This document shows positions 7,950 through 39,145 of a DNA stretch of 64,000 nt, one piece after another. The DNA is taken from assembly GCA_949358305.1 (NCBI GenBank), contig OX442314.1, positions 31,744,001 to 31,808,000 of the forward strand. The letters are read 5' to 3'. The DNA comes from Strigamia acuminata. Lineage: Eukaryota. The position numbers and the translations under genes were made by a program. Position 1 is the stretch's first letter; each line of letters begins with the position of its first letter. The notes below the pieces were generated by a model. That model was not told where the DNA came from. It made no database searches and worked only from the letters and a program-made list of their open reading frames with translations.

Positions 7950-8597
7950 AATCCATAATGACCAGAATGTATGTTATCCTGCTCTGTACGTGATTTAGGT
8001 CCAGTCAGGTCAACACTCAAACAGTTTGCATTATCAGAAACTGTTAACATCCCATTCTTCCATTTGGATAACCAACAAATATTTCTCGTTGGGCTTTGCT
8101 ATCAAATTTCTTCCTTGGTTGCCCTTTTAGCAATGTGTATCCTACACATCCAAATCGTCTCAAGTATTTAATGTTTGGGTTTTTTACTCGTCATTTTTTC
8201 TACTGGCGTTCTTCTGTGCACTGTTGACTTACATCTATTTTTAATATGTGCAGCAGCGTGCACACATTCTGTCCAAAATTGTTGTGGCAGACATGCATCT
8301 TGCATCATTGATCTGATCATCTCAATTATCGTTCTATTGGTTCTCTCAGCAATTTCGTTCAATTCTGGTGTACTAGTATATGGTGTCGTGACTTTGTGAT
8401 GAATTACTTCCCTTTTCTTCTGTCCATTGACGCAAATCATTTGTCGGGTAGTCTCTTTCATTATCCGATCTTAATTTTTTAAGTTTGCATCCAGTTTTTG
8501 CCTCCATTTTTACTATTAAACTGGTCAATTCTTCGAAAGTTTCACTTCTCTTTTTGAATGTTTTCACCATTATGAATCGGCTGAAATCATCTGCCAA
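7950..8597 (-). mobile_element. Decayed Copia integrase (3' part of the element interrupted by the Gypsy insertion)
   Basis: DDFSRF, KLKKLRSDN, TPELNEIAERTNRTIIEMIRSMM, LPQQFW motifs in frameshifted pieces. Confidence 0.85.
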
Positions 8598-11500: not shown

Positions 11501-12636
11501 CACACTTTCACATTTAATAAACTCCTTTCACTACCGGTATCTAGTAAAAAAGTAAAATTTTCTCCATTTAATGTTACTGGGACCACCACTGGTGGTGAGC
11601 GCGTCCCATCTTGCGCCGCCAGTTGAAACACAGCGAATTCGTCTTCTTCTTCTTCTTGGCGAATTGAATTCACTGGCACGCGCCTTTGACGCCAACTCTC
11701 CTCTCCTTCAGCATCCTTATCTGGTTCATTCATCTCGCATCCACTGAAATTGGCGACACGGCTTGCATCTGGTGGACGCCTCCTGTCGGACGAGGCTTTG
11801 GGGTTATATGCCGCGTCGTAAGGACAGTACCTCACAAAATGCTGCCCCCCGCATCTGTAACACGCAATCGGCGTCCCATCACGACGCCAAGCCAAGCCTC
11901 CTCTTCCCCGTCCTTGTCCAGGTCGCCCACGCCCGTTGCCAATACCGTTTTGCGGTGCATCGCGTCTCGCCGAAAAGCTTCGTCCTCTTCCTCGCGCAAC
12001 GCCGCCTCTGCCTCCCATCGACGTTTGGAGGACCGCTGCTGCAGGTGTAATCACTCCCGCCGGTCTTTCCGTCTCGACTATGGGCAACGCATCATCTATT
12101 CCGGTGGCTGTTACCGCTGCCACTTCGTGGGCCATCGCCAATTTCAACAGGTTGCCCATGGTGATCGGCAACTGAACTAAAATCTGCGTCACCAGCGGTG
12201 GGTATTTCACCCCACGGATTACCTGGTCGATGACTGCATTGTCAACTTCCGTGCTTGTGGTGAATCCACATCTTTGCGCGAGAATTTTTAAATCATTCAC
12301 ATACTTCTCCACGCCTTCACCTGGTTTGCGAACTTTGCTACCCAGCCTTTGCCTATTCATGTAAGGAGTCTTTAACGTCTCGAAGTGGGTTTCTATTGCC
12401 GCTGTCAACTCCGCCAGCGGGGTCGCGGTTACCGACTTCGGATACACCAGTCGTTTCAACTTTTCGTACAAGGTCGGGCCAACCGTCGTTAAAAACAAAG
12501 GGACCTGCTTCGCTGCCGTCACATCATTCAATTTCACGAACTGTTCGAACCGCTCGAGCCACGATTCCCAATCGTGCTGGTTAACTCCTGTGAACGGGGG
12601 CAACATCCCCAACATCACTTGGTTCGCGGCTGTCAT
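8587..12636 (-). CDS. Ty3/Gypsy gag-pol polyprotein (1349 aa, uninterrupted)
   Basis: Zinc knuckle CYRCGGQHFVRYC, protease LLDTGS, RT (RLCGDYR, YLDDILI), RNase H (TDASPFGVGAVL, YTDHKPL), integrase (HEGHPG...C..C, HIDFAGP, SDNGTQF, SNGQAER). The domain order PR-RT-RH-IN is Gypsy. Confidence 0.97.
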   Translation of the reverse strand: MTAANQVMLGMLPPFTGVNQHDWESWLERFEQFVKLNDVTAAKQVPLFLTTVGPTLYEKLKRLVYPKSVTATPLAELTAAIETHFETLKTPYMNRQRLGSKVRKPGEGVEKYVNDLKILAQRCGFTTSTEVDNAVIDQVIRGVKYPPLVTQILVQLPITMGNLLKLAMAHEVAAVTATGIDDALPIVETERPAGVITPAAAVLQTSMGGRGGVARGRGRSFSARRDAPQNGIGNGRGRPGQGRGRGGLAWRRDGTPIACYRCGGQHFVRYCPYDAAYNPKASSDRRRPPDASRVANFSGCEMNEPDKDAEGEESWRQRRVPVNSIRQEEEEDEFAVFQLAAQDGTRSPPVVVPVTLNGENFTFLLDTGSERSLLNVKVCDVLLANNRIGPQDIKGTHVKLFAYQGRPIEVLGAIILKCVVNGNVQEVEFVIVANTGPSLLGRDVVDKFGWPTLMKVFTDKKEKMVSEVGDKNTVLRMDTEARNIWDRLQEVIDQFSEVFSEELGTYTGTPVELVLKRDASPRFYRPRPVPLPLRAAVDKEVDRLVAQGVFRPIKFSRWATPLVHVQKKDGSVRLCGDYRSRVNPVLQPDPYPLPKIPELLASIGGANWFSTLDLRQAYLQVPLSAESAEIAAVNTSRGLMAVTRLPFGTMPSAGVFQRIVVSVLVDIPRIWIYLDDILIATMSLEEHFVILKTIFSRLFKVGLKLAKEKCCLVKPMLNFLGFRISKSGITPICSRVEAVTKIDNPKDVKELRTFLGIINFYSVFVEHLAELAAPLYELLCLKTEWRWTERRQMAFEAIKGALTTSPILQFYSLDKVLVLATDASPFGVGAVLAHPDDAGNEQPVAYASRSLSAAEQNYSHLDKEALAIIFAVKKFNVYLQGRHFIVYTDHKPLLGIFGKDRPIPEVISPRLLRWSLLLSAYNFDLRYRKGEENTNADTLSRFPQDPPQQEVEETSVFLTELAQEDLMQADQIAAATQSDVILKQVVSALQAGVRQLLAGSLVLKAYQVKFDELSLLRGVILWGERVVVPLDLRPKMLKLLHEGHPGIVIMKQRARHLVWWPGMNLEIVEFVKDCVMCGQNKSLPPHATPVAWPRAEGPWTRIHIDFAGPILRYMILLIIDAFSSWIEARAMTVATSTTTIGALRGVFATFGLPHLLVSDNGTQFTSQEFKDFTARNGIEHIYAPPWHPQSNGQAERAVRWIKKKLAKITQGDLTLRLQRIMLLQHASFKGKGDQTPAYLFLGRELNTHLDLIRPRPNRQVNPSSVPAFRQLNVGTAVWYKSFPEVKPPWAAGVILERRGKLVYVIRDITTQKTVVRHVNHLRARGSSETMLDKVTDSVETPTSQELVGR

Positions 12637-12949
12637 TGCGTGATTATAAATGTGGCTGGACTCGAAACTTGTCCCTTTCCGTGGCGACCAATCGAACGCG
12701 TCAATTCACGTCTGTCAGACGTGGAACGTCGCCGAAAAACTCGTAAAAAACAGAGTAAAAAGTTTATTTCTTTCCACACATCAACCCGTACGCCTTCAAC
12801 TCTTGTGCAGAAACGACTTTCTAACTAATTGCACGTCATTTCACCTTAAGTTTTTTGTTGTCCAAACTTTTCTTTATATTCTTGTAATTTCTTTCACTCT
12901 TTCAGTGCAGTTAGGGAGCAGTATCTGTCTTCATCCATGTTAACACCAA

Positions 12950-13210
12950 TGAGTCCTGTATCCCATCGTGGATACCAATTTTATGTATCAATGCCAAAAC
13001 ATAAATAACTTGAGAATTTCGAGTGTTCTCGAAATGGATCGAAAAGAAAGAGACATGTCTTTTTGTGTCCGACTCAGGCCGTCGTCTGCTCTATTTTATT
13101 CGTCGTTAATGATACAATGGTTGTTATGGCACCGTTGTTGCTAGTCAAACTAACAACAACAGTGCCACCTAGTGAGATCAATGTAGTTACATGCTTTTCT
13201 AAACACAACA
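12950..13210 (-). repeat. Probable 5' LTR of the Gypsy element
   Basis: On the minus strand it begins TGTTG exactly where the flanking Copia integrase frame (KYILT) breaks. It contains AATAAA, ends in CA and is followed by a TGGTG-starting PBS-like sequence. No second copy is seen. Confidence 0.6.
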
Positions 13211-14290: not shown

Positions 14291-15449
14291 TTTTCCTTCA
14301 AGAGTGGGCGTGCGACAGAACTTTGGCTTCAAAGCTGAAGCGAACGCGGGCTTTGGTTTGCACAACGGTGCTCCTTCCGGGTAATGAAACCTATGGGGTT
14401 TCTACGATTTCGTCAGGCTCCTCAGGAATTGTTGGCAATGGAATATCTCCGCTCATGTGAACGGTTTCACGATTTAGACGGATATCCATACGAATACTCG
14501 CGAAATCCCGATTGATTCTTACGTCTAAATGTGGCGGCGGCTTGGCGAATCCTTCCTTCGGTTTGCGATTGACTGCAATCGCAAACGAGCGTCGACGCTG
14601 TGGAGGACTGGTCTTCACATAATCTTTTTTAGAAAAGATTTTAACTCTTGATGTGGCTTTGTTGTGGCTTGATATTCTAAGCGATGAATCTATTGATTGA
14701 AGTAAACAGCTCTTAACAATACTAAAAGTTTCAATGTAATTTTAGCAGTGTTATTCTGCGGTGTTGTTTGTTCAATGTCTGGAGTCATACTGATCCAAAA
14801 TGAGGATTCTCCTCTCGTTGACAGGATGTAGCATTTCCTGTAGCTCACATTTTCTTGGTTCTCACTAAATTTATAGGGGCTACATCCTGTGAGTCCTGGA
14901 TATTGTTGCAATCCTTTTAGCACTAAATTTCTTTATTACTCCTACTAAATTACACAACTTAAGGATAATCCTTTTAAGTAGTAATTTGGGATTACTACAT
15001 CATCTGAAAATATTTCCTTTGGTTGGGGCCAAGGAATAAAAGTTGTTGTTGTCATCTCTTTATTATCAGCACCTGGGCACTGGCGGGCACAGTAAAAAAA
15101 ATACAACTGCCGGTTGTGCAATGGCGAAGGCAAAGAATTATGCTTGTAACTGTTGTTCGGGCAAGTAAAACCACTTACAAACATGAATCCAGGATCCTAA
15201 ATTAGGTCCCACACCAAAAACTAAAATCTAACAAAGTATATTGCGAAAGAAGGCAAAAATTTGGAAATATATAAGGGAAAAAGCGCAAATAAACAAATTT
15301 GCAAAGTCGTATCTGCGTTTGGAGCCACAGATATGGGAAAACCCCGGACAAAAGTTGACAAAATCGATTACAAAAGTGCGTGAAAAATTTAGAAAATGCA
15401 GCACAAAAATCCAGCGGGTGAAAAATCGTCGGAAATCGCTTTGAAATCA

Positions 15450-15840
15450 TCGTAATTCGGCCGCCTCGTGTTCGCGCTAGTGTAAGAATGCCGAAACGCT
15501 GTGTTACATTGGGTCAGCAACAGCTCAATATCAGTTCCACACAGAAAATAGCTTAAATCTCACGTAATGAGCTAAGCAGAAAGGCGCTATTCCGTACAGT
15601 TGGTACAGACCAGTAATGAGTCTCAATTCTTCCAATATCGCAGATCACACTTTGCAGAGTTGAGCAGAAGTTTGACACGGTTGTGAACAGTTTTGAAGTA
15701 GAATCAAGAGTGCGGGAAGAGTGGGCCAAAACCGTTTGGCTCACTCCAAAATCTGCTCAGTAAAGCTGCGCAGATGACGAGTTGCGTAGAGATCACAGAC
15801 GGCCGCCTTCGGGTTGTGTGCAACAATTGAGCCAGGCACG
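15450..15840. repeat. Dispersed LTR-like repeat, copy 1
   Basis: Highly similar to 28720-29035. It also shares ggccgcctcgtgttcg and cagtaaagctgcgca with 22530-22730. Confidence 0.65.
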
Positions 15841-16440
15841 CGCGAGAGGAGGGGATGCACGCCACAGCGTGATTGGTTGACGCTGTTGCTGGGCCAAAAC
15901 TTGCTGCAAAACACAATACTATTTAGGTAGTATTGTGTCTTGATTTAAACTTGAATAATATATATTTTATTTCAACTTACATTGAAATAGAACATAGGGC
16001 AATATTTGTTCTGGTTATAATATAAATTGTAAATATGGTGCTTGCTCAAATAGGAATATTTGAGGTCACCACAATTTATACTTTTAATCCAATTGTTTTA
16101 AATCTTATTTTCTTTTGTCAAATCTCACATCCTACCCTTCTTAAATAGAATTTTAATTTTTTTTTGTTGAGTTATCTGAGTCTGCAAAATCCAGCGTTTT
16201 ATAGTGCTAACAATATTTCATAATTTATACAATAAAATTTCAATTATAAGTTCTTATTTTAACTGTAGTTCAGTCCAATATTACTCAAGGCCAATCTTAA
16301 TTCTACCATTCCCTTAATACTAAAATCTTAATAATAAACAAGCGTTTGATACATTATAAGCATTAATTCTATTTATAATTCTCGAAAAGTACTCGAGCAG
16401 GTTGGTGTCTCGTCCTTTGAGGTGGATTCTTTTTCTTGCA

Positions 16441-17510
16441 TTAATTTGTCCACTTCTTTGTAGTAATCTTTTGATTTCTTGGTTTTCTTGGTGAACTCTG
16501 TGGTTCCCGAATGTCTGTTTTCTGCCATCTCCCCCAAACCCAATGTATTCCGACATTAACTACTACGAGAAGGACAAGTCCCACGGCAATTCCTGACAAA
16601 ATTTTGTTCCTGGGTAATCTCTCCTTCCAGTTTTTCGCCTTTAGGTCACTTAATTCTTTCTTTACTCTGCCTAGAGCTACACCATCTTTCACATTCCTAT
16701 TCTGTTTTAATTCCTGAATTAATTTTTGAACCACGGTCGTATTTTTCTTTTGTATTAATTCAACCAACACTGCTTTTTCTGATTCGCTAATGATGTGGAT
16801 TGGGTGTGGCAACGTATCATGAAATGTCTCAGCTGATGATCCCTTAAAATGTGAATTTACATAGAATCCTGTCCCTAACATTTGAAACTGATGGTAAATG
16901 TAATGTTCCTGTTCCTGCCATCAATTTCTGAGTGTTTTTCCTATATCTGAGTGTTTTTCGTATATAATGAGTATTCACAACTCCGATATGGATAACGGAG
17001 GACTGCAACGGTGGGATTGCAAGTTTGAAACGGACCTTTCTTACAATTAAAAACCACATATTCATCCAAAAGAATGTATGACTGACTGTCCTCTGACACT
17101 GCAAGGTGGAGAAAACAACAGAAAATCCTGTGCGGTTATCATGTACTAGAATGGTTACAATTCTACAGACATCAAACATTTCGGCCAAAGTTTTTATTGG
17201 CAGCGGTAAACTCAGACGAAGTCTTCCAACACAAGCAATTGAGATAACTTCTAATCCCTCATAATATTTATAAATGTTTTCCTTTGTGGGTGGTGTAATC
17301 AAATGCATTTTTTGAGGTAATTGACGCTTAACTCCTTCCAACACTTCCATAAAGATCTTTTGTTGAAGAAAATGTGGACTCAATTGCCATTGTGTCAAAA
17401 GTTTCAAAGCAACCACTAATCTTTCAATTTCTCGTTAATAGTCGCCTCGAATTGTTTCCAATAAATAAACTTGTGATCTTATCGAGGCTAATTTTTCTAA
17501 TAATAAAGCA
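16441..17510 (-). pseudogene. Retroelement env-like (errantivirus/baculovirus-F-like) glycoprotein fragment, copy 1
   Basis: Frameshifted ORFs with a C-terminal TM helix (ILSGIAVGLVLLVVVNVGIHWVW) and basic tail. Collinear similarity to 19613-20575. The family assignment is inferred. Confidence 0.6.
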
Positions 17511-19612: not shown

Positions 19613-20575
19613 CTAAATCAATTTCTCTATTTTACCTTTATTCCTACGCCTCAAGGCCTGATATTTCGCATTCCAATTATTGAATACAATTTTACTAACT
19701 ATAAAAAGCATAACTAATGAAGTTAAAATAATATTTATTATAGACAAAACATGATAGCTAAAATTGTTATGAACGGTGTAACCTAATTCTTCCTCATTCA
19801 TTCTACTCAGCTCTGTTCGTATGTGACTCATGGTCACGCCATCACATTTTGTAAAGTTACTCCCCATATCAGTTATTAGTGATTGGATGACAGATGTGTT
19901 CGCTTTTAATTTTAACTCGGATAAAAGCTTTAATTCTGATTCAAGCAAATAATGTGGCCATAACTGGGATAGAAAAATTTTGCTTTTTGGAATCTAAGGA
20001 AACAGTTGCATAAAAAAAGGAAGGCAACTGAAATCCTTCTCCAATGAGTGTGCAAGAAGGTGGCAAGGTCAAGGTACCGACTCCAACAGCAAGTATTTTT
20101 ATAGTTTTTATACTACCGTATCCTTCTTTTTGAGAACAACTCACTATGACTTTCTGTTCATATGCAATCACGAGCAATTCCACATTTAAAGTGTTTCATT
20201 TTTGAGTATTCACCCTCTGTATATATCCACAACACTTCTTTATTTAACTTAGAAAAAGTTGGCCAATGTCCTAAAATAACTTTTCTTCCACAACTCTTTG
20301 AAATGATATCCATATTCCCTAAGAACAATGCATATTCACAACTTTTATACGGGTATCTTAGAATAGAACCTTCAGGTGAACACACTTGAAATCGATACTT
20401 TTGACATCTTGCCATTGCATATTTATCTAATAGCATATAGGCCTGATTGTCTGCAGAAACAGCTATAAATTTATAAAGGGTTGAATAGTAAATTGAAAAA
20501 CCTGTTTTATTATCAAAAATGGGCAAGGCTAGAATCCTATGAATTTCAAAATGACCTAAGGTGGAGCGAAGTGGA
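19613..20575 (-). pseudogene. Retroelement env-like glycoprotein fragment, copy 2
   Basis: Cys-rich ectodomain (CQKYRFQVC, KSCEYALF, GVGTLTLPPSC), heptad region, TM helix (VLSIINIILTSLVMLFIVSKIV) and basic tail, over three frameshifted ORFs. Confidence 0.65.
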
Positions 20576-20624
20576 ATTTTGACACCTTAGCGTAACCTAT
20601 TAAAAGTGGCGATGGCATAAACTG

Positions 20625-21830: not shown

Positions 21831-22985
21831 CCATTTCAAAGAGCGGTAATGAAGAGCGGTGTCACTTTGAGAAATGGCCGCAGCGATGAAAAATTTGCAA
21901 TTACGCGCAAGTTAACCGTTGACGATGTTAGAAGCGGATATCCAACAAATGGGCTATACAGGTTACTAGTTAACCCGTCTAAACAGTGGCCGTTTAGGAG
22001 TTGTCGGGAAATAATGGCCCTGTGGCCCCCGGATACCCCACTGTCAAGGATACCCCACTGTCAGGCACGGCGAAAAAATACAATGGTCAGAGTGCAATGA
22101 CCAAGGCAAGGGATCAAATCTGCAAGAATAATCAAATCCTTGCAAAAATAACCCCAGGATCCTACACTGGATCCCCCAAAAAAACTTAAATGTAACAATA
22201 TAATTTCGACAGGGAAGGCGAAAAAATGAGTAAATTGAGAAAAATAAAAGTGTTGGATGAAATAAATCCACTGGAGACTATCTGTTGAGCACACCGGGGT
22301 GCGAAAATCGTTGAAAATCTCGGAAAACGTTCTCAAAATCCTTGGCAGTCGTCAGCCGCTTCGCACTCGTCGTGCGGGAAATTACTCCAAAAAGCGACGA
22401 AAATCTGCAAAATAATATAGAAATGTCATTCAAAAGTTCAACTTCAGTTAATTGGCGATGAAAATCGACAAAAATGTCTGCAAATTTAGTCGAAATCCGT
22501 CGAAAAACGTTGAAAATCGTCTTAACACACGGCCGCCTCGTGTTCGTAAAGGAATTTTGTTGCGCCAAAACCGTAACCCTGGCCAAAGGAAGGGTGGAGT
22601 GTGCCTAGGCACACTTCGGTTCTGCGCACTGATCGTGCGCCGTGAGCTCAATTAGGTGCAGAAGTGTGGCAATCTTGCACCTGCAGGCCTGGCACACTTC
22701 GTATCTGCGCAGTAAAGCTGCGCAATTAGCTTGGTTTGGTGTAACAAAGCATTTTGCTGCACCAAACGGTTAATTAATGAACTCACCCCAGCCAAATTGG
22801 GGTGAAATATGCTAGGGGAGTTTTCCTCCCCTAATTATGTAACTTGGTTTGGCGTGTAAAATATACAACTTCTTATGTGGTGACTTTTTTATTAAATAAA
22901 AAACACTAAAGACACTTCAGGGTCACCACAGCTATTACTAGAATATTTACAACATACATGTACAAATTGTCCTTTCCCAAAAACT

Positions 22986-23440
22986 TTATTCACAAGGATC
23001 CCCCACCCAAGACACTGGGGTAGGAATAGCTCGATTGCTGTTTAGTATCCATGGGTAGTTTGGAACAGTGCCACGACTTGTTTGGTAGGTGTGCGCTGGT
23101 GGTGGAGTCACAATCTGGTCTGATTCGGTTTCTTTGAGTTTCTGTGGAGATATGGTCCATAATAATTCCTCTATTAATGGGCTTGTTTCGTCTGCTGTTT
23201 GTTGTGATGTTATGACTTCATTCGCAATACCTCTGGCCCTCTTTAATCTGTTCACTTGGACGTGTTGTTTTTCTTTATTTAGCAGGGCCTCAATGGTGTA
23301 CATTTACTGGTGAGGTAAATTGAATTACTTTGTAAGGACCCTTCCATCCTTGTGATAACTTCTTGGCCAGTCCTCGTCCGATAACAGGATTGTTTAAGTA
23401 TATATAATCTCCTTCCTTAAAGTCTACTGCCCTAGCATTC
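22986..23440 (-). mobile_element. Gypsy integrase C-terminal remnant
   Basis: WKGPYKV (GPY/F motif) near 23330-23350 and HVQVNRLK. Confidence 0.65.
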
Positions 23441-25938: not shown

Positions 25939-28216
25939 TGTTGGTCTTGAAGTTTGTAGTAACTGTGTGATTGTTTAGAAACAAAAGTCAAAGCAGCGAT
26001 AACATTGTGCGTGTATTAAAATCAAGAGAGTACAAAGTGAGAGTAATGAGTCATTGGTACAAATATAGGGGTTAATAGGTTGGTGGCGCCATCTATTAAG
26101 AAGCAATGGTAACAAATCCCTTCCTGCGATTCATAGATGGTGCAAAAAGATTTTCAATATCTATTAAATGTCAATCATTCCCAACAATTCGGCACACCTT
26201 GAAATTGTCTCTTTCTCTACTGGCTTTGTTAGAATGTCAGCTGGCATTGATTTAGTCCTTACGAAATTTAACACGTAATTTTCATCCTCTATCTCATCTT
26301 TAACAAAAAGATATCTAAGTTCAATATGCTTAGTCTTACTTCTATTCATTGTTCCCTTTGCGACAGCGATAGCGGATGTGCTATCCGAATACATCGTTAC
26401 AGGTTGTTTGCATAAATTATCTAATTTTAATTCTATCAAAAAAATTACTAGCCATTTTCCTTCTTTTATCCCATCGCACACAGCCATGTATTCGGCTTCG
26501 CAAGATGAGAGACACACCATTTTTTGTTTGGCTGATTTCCAGCTAATTGCAGTTCCGAATAAAGTAAATGCAAAACCTGTTGTTGATTTTCCTTGGTCTA
26601 GCTTGCCATTCCAGGAGGCGTCTGTGAACCCCTGTAATGGGCTTTCGAATCTCTTGTATTCCAAGCGTCTATTAATCGTCCCTTTCAAAAATCTTACGAC
26701 CTTTTTTGCTAACGTCCATTATTCTTGGTCATAATTTTGATTAAAGCGACCCAAGAAATGGACAACGAAAGCAATATCTGGCCTAGCGCCCTGTACTAAG
26801 CTTAGGTACAGTAAAGCACCAATGAGATTTTGGTACGAAATCTCTTCTCTCACGAATTCTTTCGGTTGATTGCTTGCATTTTTCTTTGCTTTCTCTTACT
26901 TTCTTACTTTCAAACTCTTGCCCCTTTGTGATTGGGGTCTGCATTGGGTTGCAATCTGTCATCCCAAACTTATCAATGATTTTTTGGATGTATGCTGCCT
27001 GTGACAAGTGTAGCGTTCTATTTGCTTTATTCTTTTCGATTTCTATCCCTAGAATCTTACTTGGTTCTCCTAAATCTTTTATTTTAAAATTTGATTTCAA
27101 AAGTTTAAAAATTGCATCTAACATTTGTTTTGTTTCAGCTATGGAGATGGTATCATCGACGTAAACCGCAATTATCGATTTGAGACGGCCATTTTCGAAT
27201 TTTATGTGAACACATTCATCTGATTTCAGTCTAATAAAACCGTGTTTTCTCAAAAATTTGTCTAATGTCTTGTACCATGTACGGCTGCTGTTTTTCAAGC
27301 CGTATATAGCTTTCTCTAATCCGCAAACCCACTCTAAACGGTCCTTCTTTTCTCTTCACGGGGGCTGTTCCATGAACACAATTTTCTTCAACTTCCCGTT
27401 TAAATACGCCGTAGTCATATCATGCTGCCTTATAGGCCAGCCCCAATGGTTTGCTAAAGCTAAAATTATGCGTAGGGTCGTTAGCCGCATTACTGGCGAG
27501 TATGATTCCTCGAAATCTATCCCGGGTTTTTGCCCCGCCCCTACGGCTACGAGCCTAGCTTTAAAATTTGGTTTGTCATCTGATTCGTCCTTCACTCGAA
27601 ATACCCACCTTGACTTTAGTACTTTTCTATTTTCTGGGCGCGGAACTAATTTCCACGTCTCCATTTCGCTATGATAATCTAGTTCTGACTTTATTGCTAA
27701 ATCCCATTTCCGCTCCTGCTCCCCTTCCATTGCTTCATCAATCTGGAATCTGGAATCTGGAATCTGGAACCACATACCTTATTAATTGTGTTGCTGCTGC
27801 AGCTGGTGGATCCTCACTTATGGCTGTCAGGACTGCATGTTTCTCCAAAAGTATCTTGGTTTTCCAACACCACGTTGGGTAATTGTTTTCCTCCAACTTC
27901 TCGATGTGCGTGAAGCTTTGTGTACTCGTATTCTGGTCCGCCATTGTTCTCCTTTGTTTGATTCACTTTTTCACGTGTTCACACTAATCCAATTGTTTCC
28001 AGCAAAAACAGTCCGTTTACTCACAGCTTATCAATTTCCGCACTGAGCCCATAACCCTTTGTTGGTCTTGAAGTCTGTAGAAACAAAAGTCAAAGCAGCG
28101 ATAACATTGTGCGTGTATTAAAATCAACAGAGTACAAAGTGAGAGTAATGAGTCATTGGTACAAATATAGGGGTTGATAGGTTGGTGGTGCCATCTATTA
28201 AGAAGCAATGGTAACA
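25939..28216 (-). mobile_element. Copia element with both LTRs, internally deleted (non-autonomous)
   Basis: Near-identical LTRs at 25939-26114 and 28060-28216 (TG...CA on the minus strand). PBS ggttatgggctcag, PPT cgcaggaagggatt, and 5-bp TSD GTTCT at 25934-25938 and 28217-28221. The gag start is joined directly to RT (VYVDD) and RNase H (FTDASW, SSCEAEY, KHIELRY, ADILTK). Confidence 0.95.
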
Positions 28217-28719
28217 GTTCTTGTCGCTTCCATGATGGTCCTATTCGCTCTTTCCGCCAACCCGTTGCTCTGGGCGGTATGGGGCGTAGTCAACTCATGC
28301 TTTATACATTTTTTCTTAAAGAAGGCATCAAGGGAACTTGCGATAAATTCGCCCCCATTATCGCTCCTCACTCGTTTTAATTTTAAAATATTCTAAAATT
28401 CTAAAATACACGATGAATATTGAGGAAGCAATAATACTAAGGTCGATCTGGCTTTTTCTCGAATACACACTCACAATTAACGGTCGGTTCCAAGATGGCG
28501 TTGATGGCGTCGTGTGAGCGCGGATTTTGGCAGAGTACACTCGATGCCAAAACCTAACTCCAAATACACCTAAATTCCTGTGGAGCACGCTCGACATGAG
28601 AATACTTCTAACACACAGCGGTTCGATTATTACGGAGCAAGCTCGACGTAACAATCCGTCTACACACAGTTTGCTTTGTGGAGTAGACTCGACACAAAGC
28701 ACTTCAAACCAACAGAGCA

Positions 28720-29035
28720 AGCTCAATGTTAGTTTCACACAGATAATGGCTTAAATCACGCTTAGTGATCCAAGCAGAAGGGCGCTATTCCGTACAGTAG
28801 GTACAGACCAGCAGTGAGTCTCAATTCTTCCAATAAATCACAGATCACACTTAGCGAGTTTGTGCATAAGTTTAACACGGTTGTGAATGGTTTGGAAGTG
28901 GAATCAAGAGTGCAAGCAGAGTGGGCCAAAACTGTTTGGCTCACTCCGAAATCTGCTCAGTAAAGCTGCGCAGATGACGAGTTGCGTAAAGATCACACAC
29001 GGCCGCCTTCGGGTCGTGTGCAACAATTTAGCCAG
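28720..29035. repeat. Dispersed LTR-like repeat, copy 2
   Basis: Collinear, high-identity match to 15520-15840. Confidence 0.65.
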
Positions 29036-30652
29036 GCCAGAACGATAGTTAGACCACCTTTTACTGACTACTGGCGGACTCACAACCAGCGAACTAGACA
29101 TTGTGAGTAATAACGCTCAACAACCGGAAATACAAGCAAGGTACAGTCATGGCCAGTGATCTTAAAAACCATGAAAGTCTAATGAAAGGGTGAAAAGAAT
29201 AGTTGACAACATGGCCAGTATTCTAGACATCATGTAACAACAATGTAAAAAGGAATGGGTTTTTCATTGGGCGGGATGTTTGTCGCAACATCTCCAGGGT
29301 GGAAAAGTCTCGATTGAGGCAACAAAACCTGTCGTCACCTGTTGTCTATCTGACTCTCCGTGGACCTAAACCAGGCGCGAGAGTCTTTACGATTAGAGGC
29401 AGTAATTTAATACCATCTACCTCTTGTGTTGTTGCACGCAGGACAACCAGCCAATGCTTGACTGTGCGTCAATTTCATTGATGCACAACATAATTGAATC
29501 AACCGAAAGGCATCAAACAACAATTGTATAGTGTCAATAATCAGGGTATGCAAAAACAGCCCAGAATAAAGTGGTGCGTGCCTTTAAATGCCCAAGGGGC
29601 GGGCGACTTAGCAGCACAAGGGGGTTCCAGCTGTTATGCAACCAGTCACAACAGCTGTATCGAACGGGTTAACCGTCCCTAAATGCGCTTTAAAAGGGGA
29701 ATGGTCAAAGCATACTTTCCTTTTGGGGAGGGGTGTCTGGGGTAACGCAGACGGGAAGTCACCTCCCCTCTTAACGAATGACGTCACAAGGCGAGAGGAA
29801 CGGCGAAGGAGTCTCTCTTTCACGGGCAAGATGGCGGCTGTCCTTGACTGGGGCGGGTGTCATTACCTACTACTAGTGAACAGATATTAATATTTCAGAG
29901 AAGGCACCATGGCCATAGGACGAGACCTATTTATATGTCATTTATATGTGCTAAAGGAGCAGTGGTTTATTAGTTAATAAACTTTACTTGGATTTGTAAA
30001 AATATAAATATATGTATATATGTGTATCCAAACTGATATGATGGTAACGAAGTCCTTACGAGAGTCGTTCTCGTGACAACGTTTGTATGGGATCTGTTTT
30101 TTGTGTATTCTCGTCGCCAATATTGTGTTTCTGGAACTTTCTGTAAATTGTGTGCGTGGACGAAATTATAATACAGCCATCTTGTTAGTTGGAATTAACA
30201 TAAAGCGAATTAATTAAGACAGGGGGCTTTGACGTAGCAGTCAGTGTCATACAAAAAGACGGATTCCAAAATAATCAATGTGGAGAAAGCACCCCAAAAA
30301 GGTTTTGGTGAAATATTTTATTTTCTGCAAGTTAGGCTCAGCCAATCCAGAGTGAGAACAATCAGCAATGAGTTATTGCAATAGCAAGATAACCATTGAT
30401 AAATATTTTTATTTATACATGAAAAATCGTTTAATAATTTTAGTTCAGTAATACAACTGATTTTTTAACATAAAAATTAAGTTAGAATTTATATTGCTGG
30501 CCAATGACGATGGGCAATTTGTGGTTTTTACCTTTCTGTAGAAACTGTTTAAGTGTCCATATAAAAGAATTCAGGAGAGCATGAATATAAGCGTGTATAA
30601 GAACAAAAATACATGAACTGAAAGTAATGAGTAATACAATTGTTTACATTAA

Positions 30653-32407: not shown

Positions 32408-32607
32408 NNNNNNNNNNNNNNNNNNNNNNNNNNNNNNNNNNNNNNNNNNNNNNNNNNNNNNNNNNNNNNNNNNNNNNNNNNNNNNNNNNNNNNNNNNNNN
32501 NNNNNNNNNNNNNNNNNNNNNNNNNNNNNNNNNNNNNNNNNNNNNNNNNNNNNNNNNNNNNNNNNNNNNNNNNNNNNNNNNNNNNNNNNNNNNNNNNNNN
32601 NNNNNNN
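32408..32607. other. Assembly gap (200 N)
   Basis: Run of N. Confidence 1.
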
Positions 32608-33367
32608 ACTCGTTCGTCCATTCGTCAAATTGGTCGTTTCGTCTAGCGACGAGAACAACGGCGACGCTAACGTTTACGCGAGTAACTCGGTGAGTTCGTG
32701 CATTCTGCGCACGCAAAACGCGAACGCGGCCAATTGACAAAATAACATTTTACAAGTAATGGTTTAATAATTTACCTCCGTGTGCGAAGCGCGTGTCGCG
32801 TCCATTGTGTCTGTCTGTCTGATTTTGGCGAATGAACCGACGCGACGCCCGGTGATAACAATGGCGATAATGACACGCGACGTAGCATACTTCTAGCTAA
32901 ACAACAATAATAATAATAATTCATTAAAAAAATAAAATGAAATAGAATAATTAAATAAACAAACAAAATAATAAATAGATAAATAAATAAATAAATAAAT
33001 AAATAAGTCGAAAATAAATAAACTAGCGGCGGGACGGGCCGAGGTCAGAGATTTTGCTCCGTTCTCGCGTCTGTCTATTCCGGGTAGAGGGAGGGAGCGA
33101 ACGGGCGCGCGCCGGACATCGCTCGGAATTAAAAAACGGGTAACGGGGGAAGACAGACAGTCGAAATTTGATTCCCCGGTCGTGGAATCGACTCCGCGAC
33201 CCGTGCTTTAACGGTTAATTGGATTATCTTCGTCGTGACTTATCGGGATAAAAATTTTATAGAAAATCGGCCGTATCGTATTTTATTTTCATCTTCCGAG
33301 GGTCTCGCGTCGTCGTTGTGGACGGGAGTCTTCCCGAACACGTTCGACGGGCTTCGCGAATGCTTTC

Positions 33368-33492
33368 AGATCGGACGCGGAACTCGGGCCCGCCGCTCGG
33401 TCGAGCGGCGCCAGTACCCGCCGAGCGGCGCGGTATCCGATCAAATAACTCCCTTGCTTCGTCACGGTCTCGGACTGGCCTTCGGGCCGGTC
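33368..33492 (+). ncRNA. Putative family-1 small RNA, unit A
   Basis: The AGATCG 5' end can pair with CGGTCT before the terminal cUUCGg hairpin. It starts 67 nt after the conserved ggtctcgcg element. Confidence 0.55.
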
Positions 33493-33950
33493 AAAATAAC
33501 AAATAAATGAATAAATCGAAAATAGAACGCCCCCGTCCCGGCGAGACTAGGGGCGGGTGGCGTCGTTGAGCGGCGGCAGCGGCGGCGGTAGCCCCGACGA
33601 CTCGCCCCGAAAATAAGCTCCCGCACCAGCATTCCTTCGTCCGTCTAAACCTCGCAGCGCGTGCGGTCGCGTGCATTCTACTCGTGTCCGGTGTGGCGAT
33701 CGGTACAGAGTAAAAAAAAGATCACCCGAAAAAGAAAGACGATTAAAGTTTTAATTCTCCGGTCGTGGAACCGACTTTGCGGTTCGTGCTTTAACCGTTA
33801 ATTAGGTTATCTTCGTCGCAACTCGTCGTAATAAAAATTTCACAGAAAATCAGCCGTTTCGTATTTTATTTTCATCTTCCGGGGGTCTCGCGCCGTCGTT
33901 GTGGACGGGAGTCTTCCCGAACACGTTCGATGGGTTTTGCCGACACTTTC

Positions 33951-34083
33951 AGATCGAATGCGGAACTCGGGCCCGTCGCTCGGTCGAGCGGCGCCAGTAC
34001 CCGCCGAGCGGCACGGTATCCGATACCCGTCTTTTTTAAACCTCCCTTGCTTCGTCGGTCTCAGACTGGCCTTCGGGTCGGTC
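33951..34083 (+). ncRNA. Putative family-1 small RNA, unit B
   Basis: Same scaffold; an extra G-U wobble in the terminal hairpin. Confidence 0.55.
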
Positions 34084-34111
34084 AAAATAAATAAATAAAT
34101 AAATAAATGAA

Positions 34112-34162
<51 letters not shown>

Positions 34163-34613
34163 GTAGGTCGGGAAATAGAACGCGTTCGTCCCGGCGAATA
34201 GTGGCAGCTGGGGTCGTCGAGTGAGTGGCGGCGGCAGCGGCAACCTCGATGACTCGCCCCGAAAATAAAGTCCCGCGTCGGCATCCCTTCGTGCGTCCTT
34301 CGTCCGTCTAATCCTCGCAGCGCGTGCGGTCGCGTGCATTCTACTCGTGTCCGATGTAGCGACCGGTACGAGGTAAAAAAAATATCACACGAAAAAGAAA
34401 GACGATTAAAATTTTAATTCTCCGGTTGTGGAACCGACTTCGCGGTTCGTGCTTTAATCGTTAATTAGATTATCGTCGTCGCAATTTATCGGAATAAAAT
34501 TTTTACGGAAAATTGACATTTCCGTATTTCATTTTCATCTTTCGGGGGTCTTGCGCCGTCATAATCGGAGCGAGTCTCGCTCGATGCGTTCGACGGACTT
34601 TGTGGGAGTTTCC

Positions 34614-34758
34614 AGATCGCCAGCGGAACGAGGGGCCGTGGCTCGTCCGAGCGGCGCAGTACCCGTCGAGTGGCGCGGTACCCGAGTTCTTGCATCCAAC
34701 GGTGGACACATCTTTGTCGAGAGCACCTCTCGGTCTCAGACCGGCCTTCGGGCCGGTC
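34614..34758 (+). ncRNA. Putative family-1 small RNA, unit C
   Basis: Same scaffold, diverged core, perfect terminal hairpin. Confidence 0.55.
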
Positions 34759-35211
34759 AAAAAAAATAAACAAATAAATAAATAAATAAATAAATAAACG
34801 AGTCGGCGAATAAAGGCGGTTGGGGTCGCTGGACGGTGGCGGTGGTGGTGGCAGCGGCAACCCCGACGACTCGTCGCAAAAGATAAGCTCCCGCGCCGGC
34901 ATCCGTTTGCTCGTCTAAACCTCGCAGTGCGCGTGCGGTCGCGTGCATTCTACTCGTGTCCGATGTGGCGATCGGCATAGATCACCCGAAAAAGGAAAGA
35001 CGATTAAAATTTTAATTCTCCGGTCGTGGCACCGACTTTGCGGCTCGTGCTTTAACCGTTAATTAGGTTATCTTCGTCGTAATTCGTTGGAATAAAATTT
35101 TTATAGAAAATCAGCCGTTATGCATTTTATTTTCATCTTCCGGGGGTCTCGTGCCGTCGTAGTAGGCGTTAGTTTCAATCATCGCGTTCTACGGATTTTG
35201 AGGGGATCCTC

Positions 35212-35402
35212 AGATCGAGACCAAAGTGAGAGGGCCGTCGCCCCCGTCTCGTGCGCCGCTCGATCCCCGTTGGATGACAAGATGGCATTCGCCTCTCCCA
35301 CCCGAGGATCGGTCGGTGGTGCGGTATTTATGCTTGTGCACCAAATGGGTGGTCGACAGGTCCCCAATCGGTCTCGGGCTCAGACTGGCCTTCGGGCCGG
35401 TC
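35212..35402 (+). ncRNA. Putative family-1 small RNA, unit D
   Basis: Extended closing stem tcgagacc/ggtctcgg; unique core. Confidence 0.55.
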
Positions 35403-35865
35403 AAAATAACAAATAAATGAATAAATCGGAAATAGAACGCTCCCGTCCCGGCGAGACTAGGGGCGGGTGGCGTCGTTGAGCGGCGGCAGCGGCGGCGGTA
35501 GCCCCGACGACTCGCCCCGAAAAAAGGCTCCCGCACCGGCATTTCTTCGTCCGTCTAAACCTCGCAGCGCGCGTGCGGTCGCGTGCATTCTACTCGTGTC
35601 CGGTGTGGCGATCGGTACGGGGTAAAAAAAAAATATTACACGCAAAAGGAAAGACGATTAAAATTTTAGTTCTCCGGTCGTGGAACCGACTTTGTGGTTT
35701 GCGTTTTAACCGTTAATTAGGTTATCTTCGTCGCACTTTATCGCAATAAAAATTTTATAGGAAACCCGCCGCTCCGCATTTTATTTTCACCTCCCGGGGG
35801 TCTTGCGCCGTCGTATTCGATGGCAGTCGCCTTCGGTGCGTTCAATTGACCCCGTGAGTGCTTTC

Positions 35866-36039
35866 GGATCGAGACCGATGTGAGAGGTCGACATTCACGC
35901 CCCGACGATCGGTGCGGACCACTGGCATTTTTTCACCCATCCGTTTATCGGTCGTCGGTCCGATGCACGCTCCAGCCAGTGATTTTGTCGACGGGTCTCC
36001 GAGAGCGGTCTCGGTCTCAGACTGGCCTTCGGGCCGGTC
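35866..36039 (+). ncRNA. Putative family-1 small RNA, unit E
   Basis: 12-bp closing stem ggatcgagaccg/cggtctcggtct; internal stems gtcgaca/tgtcgac and cactggc/gccagtg. Confidence 0.55.
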
Positions 36040-36535
36040 AAAATAATAAATAAATAAATAAATAAATAAATGGATCGGAAATAGGTCGCACCCGTCCCGG
36101 CGAGAATAAGGGTGGGTGGCGTCGTTGAGCGACGTCAGCGGCAGCGACGTCAGCGGCAGCGACAGCCCCGACGACTAACTCGCCCCGAAAATAAGGTCCT
36201 GCGCCGGCATCCGTTCGTTCGTTCAAACCTCGCAGCGCTCGTGCGGTCGCGTGCATTCTACTCGTGTCCGACGTGGCGATCGGTACGGAGTAAAAAAAAA
36301 AAAGATCATCAGAGAAAGGAAGACGATTAAAATTTTAATTCTCCAGTCGTGGCACCGACTTTGCGGTTCGTGCTTTAACCGTTAATTAGGTTATCTTCGT
36401 TGTGGCAGATTCGAATAAAAGTTTTACAAAATAATCGTCGTTTTACATTTTTAAATCATTTCCCAGGGACCGTGTACCGTCGCAGTCGATGCGAGTCCCG
36501 GTCATCGCATCCGATAGACATTGCGGACGTTTTTC

Positions 36536-36695
36536 AGATCGAGACTGGAGTACCTGTTGAGTACCAAATGGCCGGTCGGTCGTTGGTGTGGTTCCGTCTC
36601 CTAAAATGTTCGTCGCCATTTTCTGTTGGTCGAGTCGCCTACCATCCAATGGTCGGTCGGTGGGTCTCGGTCTCAGACTGGCCTTCGGGCCGGTC
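36536..36695 (+). ncRNA. Putative family-1 small RNA, unit F
   Basis: Closing stem agatcgagact/ggtctcggtct; unique core. Confidence 0.55.
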
Positions 36696-37159
36696 AAAAT
36701 AACAAATAAATGAATAAATCGGAAATAGAACGTCCCCGTCCCGGCCAGAATAGGGGCAGGTGGTGTCGTTGAGCGGCGTCAGCGGCAGCGACAGCCCGGA
36801 CGAATCGCCCCGAAAATAAGGTCCTGCGCTGGCATCCGTTTGTTCGTTCAAACCTCGCAGCGCTCGTGCGGTCGCGTGCATTCTACTCGTGTCCGACGTG
36901 GCGATCGGTACGGAGTAAAAAAAAAAAAGATCATCAGAGAAAGGAAGACGATTAAAATTTTAATTCTCCGGTCGTGGCACCGACTTTGCGGTTCGTACTT
37001 TAACCGTTAATTAGGTTATCTTCGTCGTAATTCGTTGGAATAAAAATTTTATAGAAAATGAGCCGTTTCGTATTTTATTTTCATCTTCCGGGGGTCTCGC
37101 GCCGTCGTTGTGGACGGGAGTCTTCCCGAACACGTTCGATGGGTTTTGCCAACACTTTC

Positions 37160-37285
37160 AGATCGAACTCGGGACTCGGGCCCGCCGCTCGGTCGAGCGG
37201 CGCACAGTACCCGCCGAGCGGCGCGGTATCCGATATAAAAGGACCCTTGCTTCGCCACGGTCTCAGACTGGCCTTCGGGCCGGTC
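37160..37285 (+). ncRNA. Putative family-1 small RNA, unit G
   Basis: A/B-like core with a different short variable segment. Confidence 0.55.
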
Positions 37286-37756
37286 AAAATAATAAATAAA
37301 TAAATAAATAAATAAGTCCGAAAATGGAACGTATCCGTCCCGACGAATAGATGCGGTTGGGGTCGTTGAGCGACAGCGGCGGCAGCGGCAGCCCCGACGA
37401 CTCGCCCCGAAAATAAGCTCCCTTACCGGCATTCCTTCGACCGTCTAAACCTCGCAGCATGCGTGCGGTCGCGTGCATTCTACTCGTGTCCGATGTGGCG
37501 ATCGGTACGAGGTAAAAAAAAATATCACACGAAAAAAGAAAGACGATTAAAATTTTAATTCTTCGGTCGTGGGACCGACTTTTTTGCGGTCCGTGCTTTA
37601 ACCGATAATTAGGTTATCTTCGTCGTAATTCGTTAGAATAAAAATTTTATAGAAAATGAGCCGTTTCGTATTTTATTTTCATCTTCGGGGGTCTCGCGCC
37701 GTCGTTGTGGACGGGAGTCTTCCCGAACACGTTCGATGGGTTTTGCCAACACTTTC

Positions 37757-37890
37757 AGATCGAACTCGGGACTCGGGCCCGCCGCTCGGTCGAGCGGCGC
37801 ACAGTACCCGCCGAGCGGCGCGGTATTCGATACCCGTCTTTGTAAAAGCAGCCGTGCTTTTTCGGTCTCAGACTGGCCTTCGGGCCGGTC
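37757..37890 (+). ncRNA. Putative family-1 small RNA, unit H
   Basis: A/B-like core with a different short variable segment. Confidence 0.55.
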
Positions 37891-39145
37891 AAAATAATAA
37901 ATAAATAAGTCGAGAATGGGCCACCGCCGGCCGGTGGGGCCAATCGTCGCGGGTGGGCGGGGCAGGCAGCCAACCGTCCACCGATCGATCGATCGATTGA
38001 TTGATCGACCGACCAATCAATCGGTTTTCAGATTTCGGGTTTTCACGGGTCCCAGGTTTTTCAGGTTTTTCAGATTTTTCAGATTTCAGATTTCAGATTT
38101 CAGATTTCAGATTTCACATCGAATAATGTACGGAGTCTCTTCGGTGCCATTCTCATTTTGACCGTTAAGGACAGACAGACTGCTCCTCGACCAGGACCGA
38201 CTAATGCGACAACTAGACCCGTCGCTCGTCGCGCGAGCCCGCCTCATTTTTTTCGCTCGTTTATTCACGCTTAGTTTTAAGAAAAATTTTCAAATTTTAC
38301 AAATGTACACGAATAAAAAGACCGTTTACTTTTCGCTCCAATTGTTTATTCTTTATACGCCTTTACAACTCACTCTTACGAGAAGATAAATAGAAAACGA
38401 GAAAATATAATCGATCGACCACGCCGTCGGCGCCTAACCCGAACCCGTAGTCCCCGCTTCGTTCTTCTCCTCCCCCGTCCACGGGACGGGCCGAACACCG
38501 AACACCGAGCGCCGAGCGCTGCGCGGGCACCTGGTGGCGCAACCGGGCAACATGACGCGGCACGATTCAAAACGCCGATCATTTATTCGTTTCATTTTAT
38601 TTTGTTTCGTTTCGTTTCATTTTATTGTTTCACTTTGTTTTATTTTGTTTCATTTTTTCTTTTTAATTCGCATCGCCGAGCGTCGCGTCGCAGCGCCGTG
38701 ACATCGAGGTGAACAGCGGATCAAGCTTTTCCCCGCCATTGTTGTGCCCTTCTCCTTCTTCGCGACGCACACGCGTACATATATCGGTTCGTTGGACTCC
38801 GTAGAGTGGGAAAAACAAACAAACAAACAAACAAAAAAAAAACGAACAAACGAGTAAGTAAGGCTATCCAATCGCATTATTTCTTAAAAAAAAAAAACAA
38901 ACAAACGAGAGAAGAAACGGAGCGGGCGAATAAAAACGGCGTGCCATGCGGGACAGCGTGCGTGAGCACGGAGGAGGGGGGAAACCCCGTCGATATCAAG
39001 CGACTAGATTCAACGTTGGTTTTGTGGTTACTACTCGCGGCGCTATTATTTGTCCGTCCGTTCGTCCGTTAATCGGTCTAACGAATTAACCAATTAATTG
39101 ATTAAACGACCAATTCGTTTATAAGTAGGCGATTGATTGACGAAA

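Follow-up and report, generated by a model that had tools for sequence, protein, structure and literature searches.

Are the eight tandem, diverged, non-coding repeats of this locus (unit size 583-669 bp) genes for small RNAs and, if so, of what kind? They lie within a stretch of 64,000 nucleotides, which is the whole DNA that was analysed and is called the window below, and they sit in CpG-rich, intron-rich, animal-like DNA. The first-pass annotation had described them as an snRNA-like or HSUR-like array. Judged from the sequence, the units still seem best read as an array whose structured plus-strand RNAs are made separately, but the snRNA and HSUR specifics of that description fail or are doubtful.

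Units, upstream block and transcript ends

RGATCG, where the core of each unit begins, was found at all eight claimed starts (33368, 33951, 34614, 35212, 35866, 36536, 37160 and 37757 for units A to H), and the lengths from AGATCG to the hairpin are 125-191 nt, in agreement with the RNA sizes predicted earlier. The pattern GGTCTYGYG-N58-RGATCG, which sets the first motif exactly 67 nt before the second, occurs in seven of the eight units and gave no match in 100 dinucleotide shuffles of the window; unit F, rightly described as off by about 1 nt, has a variant motif that stands 1 nt farther from RGATCG. The terminal 8-bp cUUCGg hairpin is present in every unit, and its U-G, G-U and C-G variants all stay paired on the plus strand, as had been claimed; gene conversion could be an alternative source of its invariance. 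The proposed pairing between AGATCG and CGGTCT is intact in seven units but has one mismatch in unit D, and in D, E and F the closing stem has grown from 6 to 11 bp with both sides lengthened. The predicted plus-strand RNA of unit A would cover 195 nt (33298..33492) and consist of the domains D1 (33298-33367), D2, the core (33368-33470), and D3, the terminal hairpin (33473-33492). Those of the other units would span 33881..34083 (B, 203 nt), 34544..34758 (C, 215 nt), 35142..35402 (D, 261 nt), 35796..36039 (E, 244 nt), 36465..36695 (F, 231 nt), 37090..37285 (G, 196 nt) and 37687..37890 (H, 204 nt).

The fixed 67-nt spacing does exist, but the block of fixed length spans about 200 nt. Five further motifs share their offsets across the units (-199, -186, -161, -144 and -120), just three indel events were counted in these ~200 nt among the eight units, and B, C, D and G differ pairwise over 223 nt by 12-49 substitutions with 0 gaps; the distal spacer, by contrast, shows 96 gap openings per 629 substitutions. 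Since the constant spacing covers ~200 nt, it does not single out AGATCG as the start. The block, exemplified by 33734..33880 (plus strand) in unit B and found in all eight units, is a candidate promoter with AT-rich palindromes and conserved motifs at fixed offsets, and neither of its strands shows a conserved fold (p 0.14-0.98); a TATA-like TATAG, 33 nt from TCA, is found in only 5/8 units. The idea that this block encodes a Pol III or telomerase-like RNA on its minus strand was dropped, as there is no conserved fold and TTAGGTTA occurs in only 6/8 units. The distal spacer, such as that after unit A (33493..33733, plus strand), begins with a (TAAA)n tract containing AATAAA and continues with a GC-rich segment rich in indels.

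GGTCTYGYG had been proposed as a PSE-like element, of the kind that Sm-class snRNA genes carry about 50-65 nt before the start. Its position is fixed, but its identity as a PSE is doubtful: it lacks ATTC-CAA, which according to the accessible part of PMC1761439 is the invariant core of an insect PSEA, that of Drosophila melanogaster, and it can pair with the pyrimidines just 5' of AGATCG, closing a 70-nt plus-strand hairpin, D1. Because of this pairing the RNA may start near -70, and we lean somewhat towards such a start rather than one at +1.

The consensus fold of D1 has 24 pairs, and 87.5% of its 168 cells are paired (37-54% in slid controls); 31 of 38 changed cells are still paired against 43% expected, five pairs show double-sided change (unit F, in which D1 is most diverged, carries four of them), and the cells of five lineages include 35 G-U and 5 A-C. 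For the same number of lineages the consensus energy was -15.4 compared with -8.7 +/- 2.6 in 500 neutral simulations in which the fold was re-predicted each time (p 0.004). The signal is specific to the plus strand (p 0.007; minus, p 0.89), and each of four read-derived variants mapped to D1 keeps or gains a pair. The evidence is nevertheless fragile. In seven other subsets p ranged from 0.003 to 0.20, with one below 0.05, and that subset chose a different fold; the RIBOSUM version gave p 0.056, column shuffling p 0.375 for seven units and 0.033 for five, and 11-51 of 500 within-pair shuffles came up to the observed values. A second consensus fold of the region is incompatible with the first, the individual minimum-energy folds depart from the consensus, and single-sequence stability has no peak at D1. 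We take D1, with moderate confidence, to be a conserved plus-strand hairpin, and a start at AGATCG stays a live rival because the D1 signal weakens in several subsets.

That rival in its full form, which we consider unlikely, supposes an snRNA-type promoter at -68 to -20 read by the host SNAPc, and an RNA that starts with AGAUCG, measures 125-191 nt and pairs its 5' end with the bases directly ahead of the terminal hairpin. The exact spacing in seven units and the limited robustness of D1 agree with it, as do the length variation that starts only past AGATCG and the terminal hairpin that directly follows the 5'/3' closing stem; it is opposed by the ~200-nt extent of the fixed block, by the unmatched PSEA core (in the accessible part of PMC1761439) and by the pairing of the supposed promoter motif within a plus-strand-specific fold. 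Furthermore, none of the eight cores has an Sm site (RAU3-6GR) before its 3' stem-loop, and the only Sm-like heptamer stands at -18 in unit D; a 3' terminal stem-loop, another trait of Sm-class snRNAs beside a trimethyl cap and 3' processing by Integrator, is present in 8/8 units. The Sm-class snRNA or HSUR reading thus fails at the Sm site.

T4+ runs occur inside 6/8 units and none follows the hairpin directly (the first downstream T4 is 135-329 nt away), while AATAAA stands 2-9 nt behind the hairpin in all eight. Taken together these features point to probable transcription by Pol II. AATAAA is common across the element, at 2.9-4.2 per kb, and (TTTA)n lies on the sense strand in the introns of the element but on the minus strand in the array. 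An A-box-like sequence at +30 was seen in 4/8 units, none of which has a B box, and the array units do not show a Pol III-type end at the first T4+ run.

Precursors, DNA elements or neutral repeats

It is rather improbable, in our estimate, that the units are small-RNA precursors, forming a viral-type miRNA or siRNA cluster in which Drosha/Dicer, or else a route like that of Integrator or RNase Z, would process D1 and the long class II stems, and different seeds would come from the diverged arms. At 70 nt D1 has the length of a pre-miRNA, with the 3' arm the more diverged one, unit E folds into a long stem, and herpesviruses do make snRNA- and tRNA-pre-miRNA chimeras, as noted in the accessible text of PMC4378190; yet D1 has just 24 pairs, interrupted by several bulges and including many G-U, no Rfam miRNA match was obtained, and no 13-nt match of any unit, on either strand, was found elsewhere in the portion of the element within the window. 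A match of 18 nt that links unit E to the hairpin of the second RNA family described below (E 0.09) was treated as chance.

We give the same low credence to the idea that the units act as DNA, either as an origin or enhancer array comparable to the homologous regions of baculoviruses and nimaviruses, or as single-strand hairpin sites of a non-autonomous rolling-circle element. The 11-bp inverted repeat of the units, together with a short hairpin, is reminiscent of Helentron-type ends; the palindromes and fixed-spacing motifs of the upstream block and the location of the array at one end of the high-depth DNA also suit this idea. However, the D1 consensus fold is unfavourable under DNA parameters in 7/8 units and relies on G-U pairs of one strand, and cUUCGg is a loop that is stabilised in RNA.

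The cores, which had been described as swapped, are not unrelated cassettes: A, B, C, G and H align mutually (0 of 300 shuffles). A, B, G and H have class I cores and D, E and F class II cores (D-E 0 of 300 shuffles; D-F p 0.01); the core of C is class I in its 5' part and weakly D-like in its 3' part (p 0.08). By these alignments the cores are best taken as two related classes within a recombination mosaic. Likewise, the spacer is more conserved than the core in comparisons involving C-F, but not among A, B, G and H, where identity is 77-89% for the cores, 88-99% for the 70-nt upstream segments and, within B, G and H, 79-86% for the distal spacers. Distal spacers are 92% identical between B and E and 86% between F and G, whereas the bodies are alike in A, B, G and H, and read joints reveal that other unit orders are also present. 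The class I cores, with 0 double-sided changes in 40 pairs, resemble a second family of RNA genes, of Pol III type and located at a distance of 5-18 kb, but are without an intact B box. Such mosaic relations, unit orders and B-box loss would be expected of a neutral satellite, that is, of old paralogous repeats, partly relics of the Pol III genes of the element, patchily homogenised by gene conversion. This is also improbable to us, against the three indel events in 200 nt next to an indel-rich spacer, the closing stem lengthened on both sides and the D1 substitutions that keep pairs.

Protein-coding exon repeats on either strand were rejected: frames and stops vary by unit, no consistent reading frame or substitution periodicity was found in the units (variable columns 47/42/46 by codon position), and AG ahead of ATCG is absent in unit E. 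rDNA spacer promoters were dropped, as no rRNA was found in the window, and so were SINE heads, as visual inspection of the 5' ends of the units showed no A or B boxes. Rfam covariance models gave only six weak matches in 32600-39000 (E 0.39-6.1), all far under the gathering score, and no match at that score in the whole window; resemblances that the eye suggested to U2, U3, 7SK, RNase P, SRP Alu and ribozymes found no support there and were dropped. The D1 covariance model matched the eight units alone within the window (next match 11.8 bits) and none of 100 thymidine-kinase loci, whose best segments are 27-47% identical and which are therefore not close relatives. The exact terminal-hairpin pattern had 0 loci in viral and 0 in metagenome contigs, and the exact upstream-block pattern 0 in viral contigs.

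The proposed decoys and the surrounding element

We propose that each unit is its own RNA polymerase II gene of a giant, likely high-copy piggyBac-carrying element, and that its product would be a non-coding RNA of about 195-270 nt with three adjacent stem domains. The promoter would occupy roughly 140 nt upstream of the G-run, transcription would start between about -77 and -70, counted from AGATCG, and the 3' end would be set by the AATAAA directly behind the hairpin. Recombination in the two most homogeneous blocks, the upstream block and the terminal hairpin, may shuffle old paralogous RNA bodies. The RNAs might serve as double-stranded-RNA decoys that tie up the RNA-silencing proteins of the host, in the manner of adenovirus VA RNA. 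Three considerations are put forward for a decoy role: the paralogues keep their shape although they are 60-70% identical, no antisense matches were found, and an element with many copies would gain from escaping silencing. The probability of this whole model is put at roughly 0.3. That the units make discrete structured RNAs is probable; a decoy function rather than another role falls slightly short of an even bet, and is the least supported part of the model.

The surrounding element, without a close relative in the databases searched, may perhaps be the larger find. It is separated from CpG-normal, retrotransposon-rich DNA by an assembly gap (32408..32607) that no listed contig bridges. Its contigs have ~85-140x the depth of flanking DNA (three runs, two studies), and it is likely present in about 100 copies. 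It carries a complete, intron-split piggyBac-type transposase (45637..47723, plus strand), in which four exons tile positions 32-341 of 349 of Pfam DDE_Tnp_1_7 and are followed by a Cys-rich exon, and an intronless thymidine kinase (53738..54283, minus strand; Pfam TK, E 7.6e-55), whose best database relatives are 54-55% identical. A search with one transposase exon found no relatives, and the exon 42141-42638 had 0 matches among 1.84 billion representatives, with atlas scores of at most 0.81. Gypsy protein matches came from ticks, a pseudoscorpion, nematodes, insects and fish, all at or below 51%. No herpesvirus core genes, terminal inverted repeats or TTAA duplication were found among 14 ORF stretches, the ends of the element lying in the gap and beyond the window. 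The second RNA family comprises six tRNA-derived genes of ~80 nt (43296, 43773, 44220, 44651, 49953 and 50410; 43296..50495, plus strand) with an A and a B box in 6/6, a T4 end in five and covarying stems, and it is related to the class I cores; an exact scan of viral contigs with its pattern gave 0 loci.

No description of such RNA arrays in a giant transposon or invertebrate DNA element was found in the open-access literature at listing level. If expressed, they would reveal a eukaryotic giant mobile element that spends genome on two RNA gene families, and would open to experiment the question of how ~100 copies of it are maintained in the face of host silencing. It would be a long shot to see here an undescribed class of intron-rich giant piggyBac elements, or of piggyBac-endogenised large DNA viruses, in an invertebrate at ~100 copies, with a diversifying RNA-only counter-silencing arsenal whose Pol II RNA bodies are swapped between a constant promoter block and 3' hairpin, at least one body having been captured from its own Pol III genes.

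Comparison with known RNAs and elements

Large DNA viruses encode small structured RNAs (VA, EBER, HSUR, TMER), of which those of vertebrate viruses are the best known. HSUR genes are clustered and have a 3' stem-loop. In the accessible part of PMC4378190, HSUR1-7 of herpesvirus saimiri are several small non-coding RNA genes transcribed by Pol II, and to that extent the array is alike, with several such putative genes on a large DNA element. It differs in having no core Sm site, an AATAAA tract instead of a recognisable 3' box, a GC-rich rather than U-rich composition and a probable extra 5' hairpin; HSUR membership is excluded because of the missing core Sm site and the T4/AATAAA layout pointing to Pol II.

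The giant element recalls Teratorn, the piggyBac-alloherpesvirus fusion of medaka, whose subtype 1 has 180 kb and 30-40 copies according to the accessible part of a review (PMC10175614), in which no mention of 'non-coding' was found. On that description both are large multi-copy elements with a piggyBac transposase and extra genes; the element here differs in that no herpesvirus hallmark gene was found in 31 kb and in its mostly intron-rich orphan genes.

The UM2 loci of C. elegans have a tRNA-like leader, with a promoter-like motif within the primary transcript and a start 70 nt upstream, as far as the accessible part of PMC2527325 describes them. With these and the TMERs of MHV68 the array shares a leader of ~70 nt before a second domain, but its D1 is not a cloverleaf (ARAGORN 0 genes, Rfam no match) and no A/B box pair was found in it. 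Adenovirus VA RNAs and EBV EBERs, of ~160 nt, are highly structured, as the array RNAs are predicted to be, and the VA RNAs are PKR decoys as well as Dicer substrates in the accessible part of PMC4378190. VA RNAs and EBERs are transcribed by Pol III, have a U-rich 3' end and number two per virus, whereas the array has eight units with internal T4+ runs and without a B box or T-run end. Anatomically, the second family at 43296-50495 is closer to VA RNAs and EBERs than the array is.

The upstream block and the proposed snRNA-type start

The array is real: eight tandem units (A-H) occupy 33165-37900 on the plus strand with start-to-start distances of 583-669 bp, and they are non-coding, since reading frames and stops vary between units and variable columns are spread 47/42/46 over the codon positions. 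RGATCG was confirmed at all eight positions marked by the first-pass annotation, which had regarded it as the RNA start of snRNA-like genes, with GGTCTYGYG 67 nt upstream as a supposed PSE. GGTCTYGYG-N58-RGATCG matched seven times in the window and never in 100 dinucleotide shuffles; unit F carries, as had been noticed, a variant motif 1 nt further out.

This spacing is genuine, but the fixed stretch covers about 200 nt rather than 67 nt, with further motifs at constant offsets (-199, -186, -161, -144 and -120 from AGATCG) and three indel events among the eight units. Pairwise comparison of B, C, D and G over 223 nt gave 12-49 substitutions and zero gaps, against 96 gap openings per 629 substitutions in the distal spacer (21 pairs), therefore the length constraint is real, yet AGATCG is not singled out by it. 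A start of snRNA type at AGATCG, for which the 67-nt spacing had been the argument, is rather unlikely: no Sm site occurs in any core, and GGTCTYGYG lacks the ATTC-CAA core which, in passages of PMC1761439, is invariant in D. melanogaster PSEAs, although this consensus may not be that of the host.

The units hold other candidate signals. Upstream of AGATCG they share an invariant TCA, at 79 nt in most of them, 80 nt in F and 78 nt in H; TATAG stands at -110 in 5/8 units, and AATAAA follows the terminal hairpin by 2-9 nt in 8/8. All of these are weak hints: TATAG and TCA stand 33 nt apart, slightly more than suits a TATA-initiator pair, and AATAAA occurs often in the element. At -199 (33752-33759 and equivalents) there is a TAATTCTC-like motif without CAA, which we take to resemble the 5' half of insect PSEA; about 55 nt downstream of it TTATCTTC agrees with the sequence around the starts of the Pol III-type second gene family described below, and a second transcription start may lie near these motifs. 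T4+ runs are found inside six of the eight predicted RNAs (four if counted from AGATCG only) and the first T4 downstream of the terminal hairpin is 135-329 nt away; together with the AATAAA position, this makes Pol III transcription appear unlikely.

A predicted hairpin, the cores and their interpretation

RNAalifold, applied to the five independent lineages A, C, D, E and F (B, G and H, near-copies of A, were excluded), folded the interval before AGATCG into a single 70-nt hairpin, D1, in which the supposed PSE contributes its G-run to pairing with the pyrimidines that immediately precede AGATCG. In these lineages 106/120 cells were paired, with 35 G-U versus 5 A-C, and scattered invariant 3'-side columns pair with 5'-side columns that are invariant or R/Y-fixed. 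In a seven-row alignment 87.5% of 168 cells were paired (slid controls 37-54%) with double-sided change in 5 pairs, and 11-51 of 500 shuffles reached the observed values. In neutral simulations that matched the numbers of transitions and transversions and re-predicted the fold for every replicate, p was 0.004 (0.056 in the RIBOSUM version), 31/38 changed cells being still paired versus 43% expected; that the units are a neutral mosaic satellite is improbable. The signal was restricted to the plus strand (p 0.007 vs 0.89), the upstream 140 nt gave no conserved-fold signal in the same test, and four read-derived variants mapped to D1 all kept or gained a pair; we give little credit to the units being DNA elements. 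Seven other subsets gave p 0.003-0.20, one of them below 0.05 and with a different fold, column shuffling gave 0.375 (seven units) and 0.033 (five), and a second consensus fold is incompatible with D1. Single-sequence stability was modest with no peak at D1. Taken together, support for a transcribed and folded D1 is moderate, and the fold given here is provisional. Small-RNA precursors are a doubtful reading of the units. Directly after the array, at 38053-38116, a (TTTCAGA)n run repeats the D1/core junction sequence (TTTCAGATCG).

The core-closing stem is followed after 2 nt by the terminal 8-bp cUUCGg hairpin, present in 8/8 units as previously described, its variants still paired on the plus strand. 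Class I cores (A, B, C, G, H) enclose two GC-rich tetraloop hairpins, without double-sided changes in 40 pairs; class II cores (D, E, F) have an 11-bp closing stem lengthened on both sides. Distal spacers are 92% identical in B and E and 86% in F and G, D1 is 60-71% identical between lineages, and unit relationships are, by sequence comparison, mosaic. Rfam gave six weak matches in the array region, all far under gathering score, and none at gathering score anywhere in the window; ARAGORN reported 0 genes.

The array is probably functional, with RNAs as its predicted products. That the units are RNA genes we consider fairly likely, and a transcription start upstream of AGATCG is slightly favoured. 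Our preferred full reading remains tentative (probability roughly 0.3): Pol II would transcribe each unit separately, the products would be three-domain RNAs of 195-270 nt, and these would occupy host RNA-silencing proteins as structural decoys. The decoy role is proposed from the example of VA RNAs, inhibitors of PKR that can also impair miRNA biogenesis (PMC4378190).

The surrounding element and its second RNA gene family

An N gap (32408-32607) separates two kinds of DNA. To its left retrotransposons abound and the observed/expected ratio of CpG is about 0.55-1.14; to its right the ratio is 1.4-2.0, and there are intron-rich orphan genes (with zinc-finger and PHD-like exons), a piggyBac transposase split by introns, with exons that match successive parts of Pfam DDE_Tnp_1_7, and a thymidine kinase without introns. 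Long near-exact contigs reach depths of about 22,000-23,000, 10,000-13,000 and 2,300-5,000 on the element in three runs (X1, X2, X3) and about 210-265, 90-118 and 26-45 left of the gap; such depths do not equal copy numbers, and the best-matching run may be the assembly's own sample. Since a ratio of about 100 recurs in three runs of two studies, a multi-copy genomic element is suggested. None of the contigs listed spans the gap; contig joints and loose ends reveal different unit orders in other copies. Database searches found no close relatives of the array RNA or the element proteins, and 32608-64000 may represent a giant transposon or an endogenous virus of a kind not yet described. It also contains a gene with tandem exon-intron repeat units of about 186 nt (55960-56620, plus strand). 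On the host side lie a gypsy gag-pol with an open 1349-aa frame (8587-12636, minus), a baculovirus-F-like envelope fragment among retroelements (20158-20586, minus; Pfam Baculo_F, E 3.3e-5) and a repeat with two copies in the window (15228-16455 and 28122-29349), whose contig depth is very high in each of the three runs.

The second family consists of six tRNA-derived genes of about 80 nt (43296-44735 and 49953-50495, plus strand) with covarying stems, A and B boxes in 6/6 and a T4 end in 5/6, and looser copies at ~55068 (plus) and 54810-54890 (minus). They have no cloverleaf and no Rfam match, and anatomically are like VA, EBER or vault RNAs. About 190-240 nt downstream of each, a conserved double hairpin of ~55 nt precedes a T-run (~43465-43515, 43927-43977, 44395-44445, 44818-44868, 50145-50200 and 50612-50665, plus strand); its stems differ between two groups with pairing kept. 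G and H cores resembled most of the six genes at p <=0.01, A, B and C gave p 0.007-0.28, and D, E and F showed no resemblance, so that over about 15 independent comparisons a shared ancestry of class I cores with this family has moderate standing. No 13-nt match of any unit occurs elsewhere in the part of the element inside the window.

Relation to known systems

Literature searches at the level of listings from an open-access library brought up no description of such an array. It differs from HSURs in the Sm test, from VA/EBER-type RNAs in the box and terminator tests and from TMERs in the cloverleaf test. The element resembles Teratorn as portrayed in PMC10175614 and PMC6431247 (a further listed paper is PMC5601938), but the 14 ORF stretches scanned contained no recognised herpesvirus gene. 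At the C. elegans UM2 loci (PMC2527325) a promoter-like motif is itself transcribed: it forms part of the primary transcript and stands 70 nt before the mature RNA, which is a precedent for such an arrangement. Beside these systems, the array would represent a new variant among element-encoded structured RNAs.
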